Part shown: positions 3,001-9,000 of the stretch, piece by piece | Position numbering within the stretch: position 1 is the first letter of the stretch | Layout: each line of letters opens with the position of its first letter | IMG/VR virus record: IMGVR_UViG_2703719355_000015 | Span: 1-9,274 of that record | Direction: 5' to 3' (one strand) | DNA length: 9,274 nucleotides | Source: a virus | Lineage: Duplodnaviria > Heunggongvirae > Uroviricota > Caudoviricetes | Program-made: the position numbers

Positions 3001-6000
3001 AGGAGGAGCAGCGAAGGCATACGAAAGCCCTGTTATACGAAATGCCTTGTTACGTCTGGCAAATACGCCAAAAGGTAGCACAGCATATGACAGAGCGATC
3101 AGTACGGTCACACAATCGCTCACCAGAGTCGCACAGGCATCACAAAAAGAAGCTCAATAACTGGCAGCCACGGATGGCTAATTTTTATTCTTTGATCTCG
3201 TCCACAGGGAAAGAAGAGCAATGGCAAGACAGGAAACAGAGAATAGATAACCTACCTCATATGGTGCGCCAAAAAAATTAGCTATTGATACGGGCAAAAA
3301 AGCCGAAGCGATCAGAATTGAAAGGCAAAAAATAAGCCCAGTAACATAGTTTATTAAACTCTTAAATGAGAAACGTTTTGCTTGATTTACGGTCTCAGCG
3401 AGTGATCGCTTAACGATGGATAAAAGCAAATAGATGGCGACAGTAGCTAATGCCCCTTTCCACCAGTCTGGATATAATTTTGCGACAATCAGCCCAAGGA
3501 AAACCATGATGACAGACTGAGTATTCACACCAACCTCCTTAGTTTTGCGCAGGATACCAGATGATACTTTATTGGTGGAGTGGTGTGTGAAAACGTGTCA
3601 ACGACAAACCATCCACAACTTGGACGAATGATTTAGCAAAAAGTGCTATTTTTGGTGTTTGGTGTCATAGAAACGTGAATAGCTTACTTTTCAACATTGC
3701 TTATGTTGTGAGTTCTAACGGTAACAGGGAGTGACTTAAGAAAGTTATACGCAGTAAAGCCAGCGGCAGTTTCCCCTCCCTGACTTGATATATGGATATT
3801 TAATTCAGTTGCGCCTTGAGATAATGCGGTGAGACAGTGGTTCTGAAGTTGCCCAACAGTGGCAGTGTTAACGGGGCATAAGAAATGAATTGTGTGCAGC
3901 ATTATTTATCATCCTTGCCATAAATCTTTTTAAGTGTCTCAAACACAACAGCCTTGAACTGCTCTGCCTGCTGATCAGCCAAGCGTTCAGCTTCGTCGCG
4001 ATAGCCAGTCACAGGCGATGGTTTTGATAGAGCATCTTGGACGATTTGTAACAACTCGGAGTTCATTGATCTCCCATTCGCCTCCGCCCTGAATTTTAAT
4101 TTCTCCCTTACTTCCAAAGGCATACGGAAGTTAAAGTGCGGATCGTCTCTAGCCATGCCATCACTCCAAGTTAGTATCTCTAACTTTCGTCTTTATTGTT
4201 GCTATACATGCATTTCAACTTCTCAACATCATGTTCAAGATCTATCAATCGTGATGCTATAGTTGCAAGGTCTAGTGCTTGAATGTGTTTATTTTTTTCG
4301 GTCCATGCTTCAAGTGCCGCGACCATCTCAGCATTTAATGAACGAGACTTAGCCTCAGCCAGTTCAATAAGACGTTCCTTTATCTCTACAGGAAGCCTCA
4401 GATTCACTTGAGGGTTTTTGTACTTACGATCAGACATCGGCACATCCTGAATAACTTTTTACCACAGGATATGTAGGTATCTATTGACTATCAATGCGTA
4501 CCTAAATACTATGTATGCGTACCACATACAGCGGAGGATGCAATGAAGGTAAAAACACTGCGTATGCCAGAGAAGTTAGAAAAAATCCTTGAAGAGAAAG
4601 CAAAGGAAGAGTGTCGATCGTTTAGCGCAGAAGTAATTAAACGGGTGCTGGACAGCTTGAAGAGAGAGGGGGTGATGGTATGAGTAAAGAATGTTGTTTC
4701 TGCGGCATTAGCGAATCAGACGCTGATCAAACATACATTTACTCTAAAGAAACAGGTCGGATGCTGTGTAGTGACTGCGTGTTGGACATCATAAGATACA
4801 AGCATCTTGGATGTTCTGCCAGCATTAGCAATATAGGTGAAGTATACGAAGGGAAAGATATAACTGATAGAGCAGAAAGTTGAAGCCCCAACTGCGGGAA
4901 CAGTCAGGGCTTCGGTATCGTAAAACCACGCATAGGAATTAACGACATGACGAGTGTAGCAATTGCAGAACATACAATCAACGTTCCATTCCACGGAACA
5001 AATCTCTTTTTGGTCAGCATTAACAATGAACCTTACGTTCCTATGAAACCCGTTGTAGAAGGTATGGGTATGGTTTGGGCTGCTCAATTTGTTAAATTAA
5101 AACAGAGATTTGTCAAAGGTATTTCGGAAATCGAAATACCTTCTGCTGGCGGTAAACAGTTAATGATATGCCTTGCCTTTCGTAAGTTTGCGGCTTGGCT
5201 TTCAAGCATTCAGCCAAACAAAGTCCGCCCTGAAATCCGCGACAAGGTAATCCAGTATCAGGAAGAGTGTGACGATGTGCTCTACGAGTACTGGACTAAA
5301 GGTCATGTAGTTAACCCACGCAAAGCTAAAAAGGCGTTGCCGGGTAAAATTACCACTGAACAGCAGGAAGCCATTAAACAACTCGTCATGAGTCGCGGTC
5401 AGTCTCTGCCAAAAGAAAAACAGGCTAAGGCGATGATCACCATGTGGTCGTCACTGAAATCCCATTTTGGATGTTCGTACAAAGAAATCAGTGAGGAGCA
5501 GTTTACCGAAGCACTATCACTTGCAGCTCGAGTTCCACTTGAAGGTGAGTTCATTGGCAAGTCGGAACATAATGAGATGAGTTGTTTTGATTGGAGGATG
5601 AATGTTCATAACCTGAACTCGGCGTGCATTCATCTTGATGCCATGTACAGAATATGGAGAGACGAAATGGAACCCGCTTTGCGATTGCTTGGCTCTCCGG
5701 TTGCGACCAGATTTTGCGGAAGAATTGCAGATTGCTATTCCGTAACTGCAAGCGTTAAGAAAAGTCTGGAGAATGCCGCAGGGCTGAAAGGCTTACAACC
5801 ATTTTAACTACCTGCACGAAAAGTGCAGGTCAATCATCAACGCAACGACCCAGCTTCGGCTGGGTTTTTTTATGCCCAAAATTCACCGTAGCCACGCTGC
5901 GGCGATTCCTTGCATCTGGAGCAAATTAAATGACAGACATTACAGCTAATGTGATTGTATCGATGCCTTCGCAACTCTTCACTATGGCGCGTTCTTTTAA

Positions 6001-9000
6001 AGCGGTTGCCAATGGCAAAATTTATATTGGTAAAATTGACACTGACCCTGTAAATCCTGAAAACCAGATTCAGGTTTATGTGGAGAACGAAGATGGTTCT
6101 CACGTCCCTGTTTCGCAACCAATCACCATTAACGCTGCTGGTTATCCGGTATATAACGGACAGATTGCCAAGTTCGTAACTGTACAGAATCACTCCATGG
6201 CTGTTTATGATGCATATGGTGCACAACAATTCTATTATCCTGATCTACTTAAATATTCTCCAGACCAGTTAAGGGCTGAGCTTTCTGGCCCTGATGGCGC
6301 ATCTCTGGTTGGTTATGGAGGCACAACCGTAAAGATTGAGCTGGAGATCTTGAAAGCTACACATGATTCATTAATTGATAAAACAGGATTTAACGCTATT
6401 GGCCGCTTTCTCAATCTTTCAGAGCTTCGCTCCTGTGTTCCAGAGGAGGCAGGGCAGATTGTATACGTAGCATCAGCAGCTAGCACTACACATGCTGAAA
6501 ACCACCTTGGTGGCGGCTTTTTCGAGTCTGTTGATAACATTCAGGCATGGGCTGATGATGGTGGAATTGTAATCAAGCCAGAAACTGGAACGATGGTATG
6601 GAGACGAATTAATTTTACCACTTACGACATGCAATTTTGGGGGGTGAAACCTGACGGAGTCACAGATAACGCAACAGCTATAACTCTTGCAACTAACTTT
6701 GCCCGCTCAAACAAATGCATTCTAGAGGCTCCTGCTGGAAACATAAATACATCAAAAACAATCCCAATTTATGACAATATGGGAATTAGAGGACAGGGAA
6801 AGGCTGAAGCGACAGTTTTTTATAAAACAACAAATGACAAAATAGATCTCACAAAAAATGGAGAAGTAATTCTTCAGGTGGATGCATTATGTGCTTTTAT
6901 ACCAAAGCAATGGGATCTAACAGATAACTCAATGAGTTCATTTTGTGTTAACGGTAGAGTTGAAAACTGCATGTTTAGAAGGCTTGGCTTAACACAAGAA
7001 AATGTAGATTCTTATAGAAATTATTACGGACTGTTTTTAGGAAAATCAGCAGCACCAGTTATCAGACAGTCAATTTTTGAATGTGCTTATATCGGATGCT
7101 TCTCTTATGTGCCGTTCTCTGGCGTAATGGAAATGGTCGGTTTCCCACAATATCCAGGGAAAGGATATGCTGGAGTTTTATTTGAAGATTTTAGGGATGG
7201 TCAAATAAAAGTAATAGGCACTTCTATGGATATGCGCCTTGTTCAGGTTAACGGTTACCAGTTGTCATTTAGAATGTCAGGAATGCAATATACCACCATG
7301 ACCAATTGTACTGCTGAAAACTGCACGCCAATGGATGGGGAGTCAATTTGCTATGCATTTGATTTTGTAAATCCGTATTGCATTGTCATGAATACTTGTG
7401 CAACAGAATTTGTTAAGGGTGGGCAACTTCGTGTTAGCGTTCAGGGAAACCCATCATTCAGACCATCTATTATTGTCAATGGCTTTCTGCCAATTGATCA
7501 ACAAAGCCCGGTAGTGCAAACACCTATAATAGATATTGATAATGGTGGCGTAGTTGAAATGAGTGTCATATTAAATGGTGGAGATTGGGCTATAAATCCA
7601 TCTGCTACAAATTTAGCCGTACCAAGAGCAAGCGGAAATGGGTTGAAAGCAAGGTTAATAGGTGTAAACGGGTCGCCTGTTTCGATCTGGAGCGTGTCTC
7701 CTGGCGCAGATGTGAAGGAGTTCTAACAATAGAAACATTGACATAGCTAATGTGTTAATCTAACCTGCCGGGAAATTCAACCATTCCGGCAGAGTTATGA
7801 ATAATAAAGGCAATATAATTCAAAGTCTTACATCGTTGAGAATGTTTGCAGCCCTTGGTGTTTTCGTTAGTCACCTTGGGTTATTATCTCAATCATCTAT
7901 TGGTATGTTTAATACTGCGGCAAAGTATTTTTTTAACGGTTACATAGGTGTAACGTTTTTCTACATTCTTTCAGGTTTCATTATAAACTATAGCTTCACA
8001 AATCATATAAAAAAAGAGAGATTTAGCAATAAAGATTTTATTGTATACAGGATTGCAAGAATATTCCCTGTGCATATAGTGGCGCTTATTTGTTTTATTT
8101 TAATATTTATGCATGGTAAGGGTATTGATAGTATTAATAATGGAATGCTTATTTCAAATATATTATTACTACAATCATTTATTCCATTACAGGATTATTA
8201 CTTTTCCTTTAATTCAGTTTCATGGAGCATCTCATGTGAGATGTTTTTCTACGTTGCATTTTGCTTATTAACAAGGCTAAAGACAAAGCATTTAACTTGT
8301 GTGCTATTATTTGTGCTTGCGATTAATTTTTATTATTTAATTAATCCACCATCAGCTATATCACAGCATTGGTTGTTTTATATAAATCCATCATTTAGAA
8401 TTGGCGATTTCATTATAGGAATGCTGATCTGTAGGGTGTTTATTAATAGTGATGTAAAACTCAACTATACTGTTTGCAGTATACTTGAGATCGCATCGGT
8501 GTTGTCATTGTTTTTGACAATATATGTAGCAACAAACTATATCACATATATGAACATAAAATATGATGTTCTATATATCCCTTGCATGGCGTTTATAGTT
8601 ATTGCATTTGCTTTTAATGGTGGCGTCTTATCTAAGATACTTAAAAATAGATTTATGGTTTTGCTTGGTGAGGCCTCTTTCTCATTTTACATTTTCCATT
8701 GGATGATAATACAGGTAATAACTAAGATATTAAACCCTGACACTGATAATTTGTATGAGATGTTAATGTATATAGCATTTTCTTTATTGGTTTCTATTAT
8801 TGTATCAATAATCTCATTCAAGGTTATAGAAGTGCCTTCAAATAAAATAATAAGAGGTTATTGGAGAAAATTTAGAGGTGATAAATTAACTGCGAAGTGT
8901 AGTTAGAGTTATTTTATAGTGCCTCTTGGTTATTTTATTGCAAATATATTTAATTGATGAAAAGGTGGATCACTCCACCTTTTCATCAAGCCAGTCCGCC

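Follow-up and report, generated by a model that had tools for sequence, protein, structure and literature searches.

What does a P22-type tailspike recognise when its distal part does not resemble that of P22, and where along the gene were the two parts joined? This question is raised by a 9,274-nucleotide stretch of Caudoviricetes DNA (IMG/VR record IMGVR_UViG_2703719355_000015, positions 1 to 9,274; hereafter the window), which is the right end of a P22-like (Lederbergvirus) Escherichia coli prophage. Its tailspike gene closes a P22-like late operon on the right and is the next gene after immI (Mnt, Arc, sar, Ant). A preliminary description of the window had read this gene as a P22-type head-binding domain fused to an unrelated receptor-binding domain (RBD) of uncharacterised specificity. 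From the analysis below, we consider it likely that the gene encodes a P22-like E. coli tailspike whose receptor is the O103 O-antigen, which acts hydrolytically, whose receptor is masked in lysogens by the product of an adjoining acyltransferase gene, and which has spread by recombination. The features of the window are collected in Table 1.

A P22-type anchor on an O103-subtype receptor-binding domain

The open reading frame (ORF) of the tailspike is intact, and its product starts with MTDITANV, as does P22 gp9. The Pfam Head_binding profile (PF09008) matched residues 1-113 on profile positions 1-113 of 113 with an E value of 1.4e-64, and in these residues the tailspike is 71.7% identical to P22 gp9 and 87.6% identical to Sf6 gp14. 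When the protein was compared by phmmer with all PDB chains, residues 1-117/118 aligned to P22 gp9 and Sf6 gp14, and no P22 spike match was found past residue 117 or so. Because the matches to P22 and Sf6 stop at residue 117/118, the two-part architecture is real, and the mosaic proposed in the preliminary description is thereby borne out; in sequence, the distal part is unrelated to the endorhamnosidase of P22. The tailspike is a member of the P22-like gp9 family, as it has both the head-binding domain and a C-terminal RBD modelled as a parallel beta-helix. In P22 and Sf6, it is through the head-binding domain that the spikes, as trimers, attach to the tail hub. Identical copies of the protein are encoded on at least 19 public contigs, and 273 sequences belong to its 90% cluster; an NCBIfam search returned no family for the tailspike and none for the acyltransferase.

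A tblastn search of 50,697 phage records was made for relatives of the RBD. Phage TL-2011b gp48 (YP_007001999.1), which is annotated as "hypothetical protein," is 93.4% identical to the tailspike over residues 117-598, and the RBD is also 51% identical to the PAS7 tailspike (WMX18832.1) over residues 136-581 and 42% identical to the Ro103C3lw tail fibre (QDH94159.1) over residues 114-595, the host being O103 in both cases. These three homologous RBDs stand on three different N-terminal anchors. Pas et al. 2023 grouped them as the "O103 RBP subtype," where RBP is receptor-binding protein (PMC10408124), and assigned a protein to the subtype when it shared at least 30% amino acid identity over at least 60% of the RBD with an experimentally supported O103 RBP (PMC10408124). 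The PAS7 and Ro103C3lw matches of our tailspike lie above these levels, and the hosts that carry intact copies of it are O103 as well. The same study reported Lederbergvirus prophages in the O103 strains NCTC8196, RHB17-C18, RHB31-C15, RHB38-C21, and S56 and listed one Lederbergvirus RBP under O103, that of RHB38-C21, whose anchor ends at amino acid 123 (PMC10408124). The subtype has been validated functionally: the PAS7 RBD mounted on an R2 tailocin kills O103 strains (PMC11762384), and the Ro103C3lw RBD mounted on CBA120 TSP3 gives O103-specific reporter infection (PMC12737597).

The proposal that the domain swap retargets the virion to a different O-antigen therefore stands, as a Lederbergvirus anchor is carried on an O103-subtype RBD. 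The uncharacterised specificity does not, since the RBD is 93% identical to TL-2011b gp48, 51% to PAS7, and 42% to Ro103C3lw, within a catalogued O103 subtype, and the hosts of intact copies are O103. Full-length high identity to a characterised tailspike, which the preliminary description had named as evidence against a novel specificity, was not literally found; it is the match of the RBD to a catalogued and functionally validated subtype that removes the novelty. The tailspike is thus of an already known kind, with an RBD of a published O103 subtype and no new specificity, fold, or mechanism.

Predicted fold and conserved acidic residues

The AlphaFold2 monomer model, built on a 57-sequence alignment, has a mean predicted local distance difference test score (pLDDT) of 82, exceeding 90 through most of residues 240-598 and falling to 40-60 in the poorly modelled anchor. 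Residues 241-540 are modelled as a right-handed parallel beta-helix, the fold that the preliminary description had suggested looking for by structure prediction. The RBD family is compact: of 1.84 billion representatives searched at E<=1e-30, those matching it fall into 30 clusters at 50% identity. It occurs in Escherichia, Cedecea, Cronobacter, Yersinia, Proteus, and Enterobacter, and its anchors are of three types or more (PF09008, PF18668, and a Uetakevirus-type anchor). Its PHROGs label is phrog_38237, "unknown function," and PF27114 was seen in precomputed annotations only, as it is not in the Pfam copy used.

PAS7 forms halo plaques, and two acidic clusters have been predicted from its AlphaFold models (PMC11522302), with the predicted acid pairs at 8.7 and 5.0 Å (PMC11522302). 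The PAS7 candidate residues map to D282, E293, E384, E463, N464, E493, and D523 of our tailspike. E463 and E493 are invariant in 57/57 family sequences, and E293, E384, and D523 are kept in at least 50 of the 57; D282 and N464 are variable. This pattern bears on whether the spike might bind the O103 O-antigen without cleaving it, as a non-enzymatic, adhesin-type beta-helix. We regard such a binding-only role as improbable: the five acids are conserved or invariant across 57 diverse members at predicted intersubunit pocket positions, the large halos of PAS7 are typical of depolymerase activity, and the nearest structural neighbours are active depolymerases and glycosidases. Moreover, a P22-like podovirus must as a rule cut the O-antigen before it can get to the membrane, as is established for P22, Sf6, and HK620.

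Serogroup of the carrier strains

The 5,426 complete E. coli genomes were searched with a chimeric query made of RBD-specific DNA and an O103 wzy fragment. The RBD was found at 97-99.5% identity in six of them, and the O103 wzy was found in 32 overall (0.6%). All four genomes with an intact RBD copy were O103 wzy-positive, an outcome with a chance probability of about 1e-9 if the genomes were independent, which not all of them are. These intact-copy carriers come from at least three sources, namely, a Swiss dog, a Korean chicken, and the GPEC chickens. In the two carriers without O103 wzy, GSH8M-2 and WP8-S18-CRE-02, the spike gene is interrupted by IS3, and both carriers of the diverged S56-type allele (S56 and APEC20/16) are likewise O103 only. 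The O-antigen locus of carrier 19KM2326N is annotated with "O103 family" wzx and wzy, and its galF-gnd region is 99.82% identical to that of the O103:H2 strain 12009. A literature search found no serotype for the carrier strains, the GSH8M-2 paper giving sequence type ST542 only, and the RHB38-C21 genome was not among the complete-genome matches.

Some details of these loci were recorded separately. In GSH8M-2 and WP8-S18-CRE-02 (NZ_AP019675.1 and NZ_AP022245.1; 3639729-3642861), the tailspike is split by an IS3-family insertion of about 1.3 kb. In the O103 cluster of 19KM2326N (locus L023, 15732-16719), the first GT2 gene after wzx has eight small indels in about 300 AT-rich bases relative to strain 12009. 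They reflect either a real inactivation of O-antigen synthesis in the lysogen or a long-read assembly error, and because of the second option, the GT2 inactivation was not used as evidence.

The serogroup distribution also helps to judge whether the RBD targets another glycan, such as capsule, colanic acid, or another O-antigen, with the O103 link arising from coincidence or prophage phylogeny. There are grounds for asking: residues 1-302 are matched by phrog_8280, whose label is "tail spike protein with colanic acid degradation activity," Salmonella phage spikes labelled as colanic-acid-degrading match residues 1-279, the family extends to Cronobacter, Cedecea, Yersinia, and Proteus, genera that do not produce the E. 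coli O103 antigen, and two non-O103 E. coli genomes carry the gene. However, the PHROG and Salmonella matches span only the anchor, linker, and N-terminal subdomain and not the beta-helix body, both non-O103 copies are disrupted by IS3, and the homologs from other genera, at no more than 50-78% identity, may bind glycans of a related kind. Furthermore, grafting of RBDs that share 42-51% identity with this one brings about O103-specific targeting, and 6/6 intact carriers, counting both alleles, are O103 against the background given above. Taken together, another target glycan seems quite improbable to us. The colanic-acid-depolymerase label (phrog_8280 and Salmonella SEN22-type spikes) was rejected as a functional lead, as it concerns residues 1-302 only.

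As the preliminary description had allowed, the RBD might act not as a glycoside hydrolase but as a deacylase or a polysaccharide lyase. This is very improbable, since the O103 repeat unit, reportedly a neutral pentasaccharide (Fuc3N-acyl/Glc/GlcNAc/Gal/GalNAc; Liu et al. 2010), has no uronic acid and would leave beta-elimination without a substrate, the O103 cluster has genes for dTDP-Fuc3N-acyl synthesis, for GalE, and for four glycosyltransferases but none for a uronic-acid pathway, no SGNH or esterase domain was found in the tailspike with Pfam and NCBIfam, and it is carboxylates that are conserved, like those of acid/base glycosidases.

Position of the junction and mosaic structure of the gene

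The mosaic was mapped by codon-level comparison of the tailspike with the TL-2011b and S56 alleles. Relative to S56, identity is about 100% in nucleotides over residues 101-240 and only about 59-60% over residues 241-598. Relative to TL-2011b, nucleotide identity is 98-100% over residues 161-420 or so, 90-97% over residues 421-540, and 76-88% over residues 541-598, where the synonymous divergence (dS) reaches 0.72. Residues 150-240 are 98-100% identical in nucleotides to both alleles and contain many invariant columns in the 57-sequence family alignment, and linker residues 117-150 share about 47% amino acid identity with TL-2011b gp48 and about 100% with S56. It follows from the codon-level comparison that the anchor, linker, and N-terminal subdomain of the tailspike are of S56 type and its helix is of TL-2011b type. 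The same comparison places the junction between Lederbergvirus-type and TL-2011b-type sequence near residue 150 and not at 110-117. The junction at about residue 110 that had been proposed holds insofar as likeness to P22 ends at residues 113-117 or thereabouts; the swap point with respect to TL-2011b lies at about residue 150.

Near-identity to TL-2011b, the donor-type RBD, starts only at about residue 150, and anchor-type sequence is shared with E. coli P22-like spikes up to about residue 141 (HK620), 158 (APC_JM3.2), or 169 (CUS-3). In a multiple alignment of eight spikes, the linker (residues 114-149) contains a motif, xGxxLVGYGxxTVxxxLDxL, which other spikes share although their anchors differ. 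The model predicts a helix at residues 134-149. The linker motif lies just before the junction and is a plausible site of recombination. The ratio of nonsynonymous to synonymous divergence (dN/dS) of the core relative to TL-2011b is 0.049, which indicates strong purifying selection on the tailspike. Divergence from TL-2011b is graded along the cassette, from 98-100% identity (residues 161-420 approximately; window 6410-7190) to about 76% where the spike gene ends on its 3' side, and to a dS of about 0.66 in the acyltransferase. Such a gradient suggests that the helix core alone was exchanged, and very recently.

Base composition does not mark the junction. The distal part had been described as more AT-rich, but the guanine-plus-cytosine (GC) content is 41.0% in codons 1-113 and 41.1% in codons 114-598, with no step between them. 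By sub-segment, it is 45.7% for amino acids 114-261 and 35.8% for amino acids 262-434 (24% versus 35% at third codon positions), and GC was rejected as a junction marker, as it is lower only at amino acids 262-434. The true drop is the downstream acyltransferase gene, at 29.5%.

The adjoining acyltransferase and the cassette boundaries

The product of the gene that follows the tailspike matches PF01757 (Acyl_transf_3) over residues 9-337 of 369 (E=5.5e-26), without a fused SGNH domain, and matches phrog_3333 (O-acetyltransferase) with an E value of 1.4e-80. It is 80-82% identical in amino acids to TL-2011b gp49, which occupies the same position (dS 0.66), and positions 6375-8878 of the window are colinear with TL-2011b DNA at 90.1% identity over 2,505 nucleotides. 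The spike and the acyltransferase are co-inherited. By analogy, the acyltransferase is probably an O103 O-antigen acylase serving lysogenic conversion and an adsorption block; precedents among AT3-only acyltransferases are Sf6 Oac and the O-antigen modification by PhiV10 that blocks re-adsorption (PMC9558356). After TL-2011b gp49, its next phage relative is only 35% identical.

On the left, a strong terminator that ends the ant transcript was found by a terminator scan and is visible in the sequence (stem-loop at 5847-5866 and T-run to about 5876). Eight loci that carry the exact protein were compared: in six of them, the stretch similar to the window begins at 5838-5848, and in the other two (L005 and L008), it extends left to 5196. 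The backbones left of 5838 differ among the carriers. On the right, the match to 19KM2326N, an argW-sited prophage, ends at 9053, torT-sited prophages match to 9274, and the sequence past 9053 is the region upstream of torT. The cassette was thus found in prophages at two attachment sites, torS-torT and argW/intS. Judged from these alignments, positions 5838-9053 form a cassette in which terminator, spike, and acyltransferase pass together from one prophage backbone to another.

A second RBD allele was observed in S56 (locus L024, 2468-5750) and APEC20/16, with about 59% identity over residues 241-598 and followed by gtrC/gtrB-like genes. Strain 33-6 (locus L025, 3053-6492) has only a C-terminal spike fragment together with both acyltransferase and gtr genes. 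Whether the two O103 RBD alleles, with their different modifying genes, discriminate modified forms of the O103 antigen is a speculation that we rate as rather unlikely. If it were true, one allele may use the form created by the conversion enzyme of the other phage, the result would be an epsilon15/epsilon34-like succession or arms race inside one serogroup of the E. coli that make Shiga toxin (STEC), and the near-identical core shared with TL-2011b would mark a very recent exchange under such selection.

Proposed mode of action

We propose that the spike, a trimer, uses its head-binding domain for docking in the manner of P22 and Sf6, and that its beta-helix would bind the O103 polysaccharide and cleave it as an endoglycosidase through the Glu/Asp pairs E293/E384 and E493/D523 together with E463. 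By such cleavage, the virion would clear a path to the outer membrane. In lysogens, the acyltransferase would acylate the O103 O-antigen, which the same spike could then neither bind nor cut; by analogy with Sf6 Oac and PhiV10, this acylation would serve superinfection exclusion and progeny release. The gene itself would have arisen when a Lederbergvirus anchor and linker were joined near residue 150 to an RBD near-identical to that of the Uetakevirus TL-2011b.

Several points weigh against this proposal. The O103 specificity of this exact protein is something we infer from homology and host association, and that association comes from few and possibly related genomes, GPEC349-628 and GPEC1176 sharing one allele. 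The assignment of E293/E384, E493/D523, and the invariant E463 as candidate catalytic carboxylates goes back to AlphaFold predictions in the literature. Finally, no O-acyl group has been reported on the O103 antigen of lysogens, though the lysogens are O103 and would be predicted to be modified. We nevertheless favour the hydrolytic, O103-directed spike with a masking acyltransferase.

O103 belongs to the "big six" among STEC serogroups other than O157. O103-specific RBDs are already in use for detection phages and retargeted tailocins, and the window adds a natural P22-anchored O103 RBD with a well-defined swap point (residue 150 or so) and a linked acyltransferase. The latter probably masks the receptor in lysogens, which bears on the resistance of some O103 strains to O103-targeted phages and tailocins.

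Prophage context

Upstream of the tailspike, the window holds two ejection-protein genes and the immI region. The 116-amino-acid hydrophobic ORF between them had no match in Pfam, NCBIfam, or PHROGs; it stands in the place of sieA, the superinfection-exclusion gene of P22. The ClpP-like copy looks truncated, because the related prophages of loci L004, L006, and L011 have an intact 178-amino-acid CLP_protease gene there. The immI layout is unusual in that the Mnt-like and Arc-like genes, both of the ribbon-helix-helix type, are encoded on the minus strand, and in that the arc position upstream of ant is taken by a Cys-rich ORF, although sar is present.

Table 1. Features of the 9,274-nucleotide window, in window coordinates
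Feature	Position	Strand	Basis or remark
P22-type ejection-protein gene	153-1148		Inj_translocase match
P22-type ejection-protein gene (gene-16-like)	1145-3160		PHROG DNA-transfer protein
116-amino-acid hydrophobic ORF	3178-3528	-	between gene-16-like ejection gene and immI
ClpP-like fragment, 72 amino acids	3684-3902	-	intact gene in related prophages
Mnt homolog	3902-4156	-	ribbon-helix-helix
Arc-like gene	4180-4443	-	ribbon-helix-helix
67-amino-acid Cys-rich ORF in arc position upstream of ant	4680-4883		phrog_7150, unknown function
sar antisense RNA	4878-4945	-	Rfam, 84.6 bits
Antirepressor gene (ant)	4947-5807		
Left cassette boundary: intrinsic terminator, then tailspike ribosome-binding site	5838-5929	+	
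Tailspike gene	5930-7726	+	ORF list; 598 codons and stop
P22-type head-binding (virion anchor) domain, residues 1-113	5930-6268	+	PF09008; PDB matches to P22/Sf6
Linker/neck, residues 114-149, probable recombination zone	6269-6376	+	8-spike alignment; TL-2011b/S56 identity; model secondary structure
Conserved N-terminal RBD subdomain, residues 150-240	6377-6649	+	ends at beta-helix cap motif
Right-handed parallel beta-helix body (modelled), residues 241-540	6650-7549	+	presumed O103-binding/catalytic part
Candidate catalytic acids	E293 6806-6808; E384 7079-7081; E463 7316-7318; E493 7406-7408; D523 7496-7498	+	
C-terminal segment, residues 541-598	7550-7723	+	much more diverged from TL-2011b than core
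AT3-only membrane acyltransferase, 369 amino acids, putative O103 O-antigen acylase	7797-8906	+	PF01757, phrog_3333, TL-2011b synteny
Right cassette end: terminator-like inverted repeat 8954-8989 (self-complementary match); end of similarity to the argW-sited prophage 9053	8954-9053	.	

Comparison with known systems

The tailspike is a clean but ordinary case of phage tailspike domain swapping. Its head-binding domain is 72%, 88%, and about 78% identical to those of P22 gp9, Sf6 gp14, and HK620 gp9, respectively, and the spikes of these three phages share with it the gene position after ant and, on the reading proposed here, the overall design of a trimeric beta-helix endoglycosidase. In Sf6, an AT3-only O-acetylase adjoins the spike gene, like the acyltransferase here, and CUS-3 has an annotated "bsq1 boundary sequence" at the same position as the left cassette boundary. 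The tailspike depolymerases Belisarius gp86 (PDB 24qi) and AS12 gp42 (6eu4) of Acinetobacter phages show structural likeness only; they are 18-20% identical and capsule-specific and give no information on the specificity of our tailspike.

Among the O103-directed proteins, TL-2011b, a Uetakevirus and prophage of an O103:H25 outbreak strain, has the same RBD type and the same downstream acyltransferase as the window. However, the N-terminal 215 or so residues of its gp48 form an epsilon15/PhiV10-type anchor in place of the P22 head-binding domain, and its C-terminal 58 residues and acyltransferase have clearly diverged (dS about 0.65-0.72). The RBPs of the Lederbergvirus prophages of S56, RHB38-C21, and other O103 strains share the whole architecture, a P22-type anchor with an O103-subtype RBD in an O103 host; the S56 spike differs in being about 59% identical over residues 241-598 and in being followed by gtr-type glucosylation genes instead of an acyltransferase. 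The PAS7 and Ro103C3lw RBDs have the same conserved acidic residues as our tailspike and bring experimental evidence for O103 targeting, whereas the phages themselves are lytic Autographiviridae with other anchors or none and without an adjacent acyltransferase.

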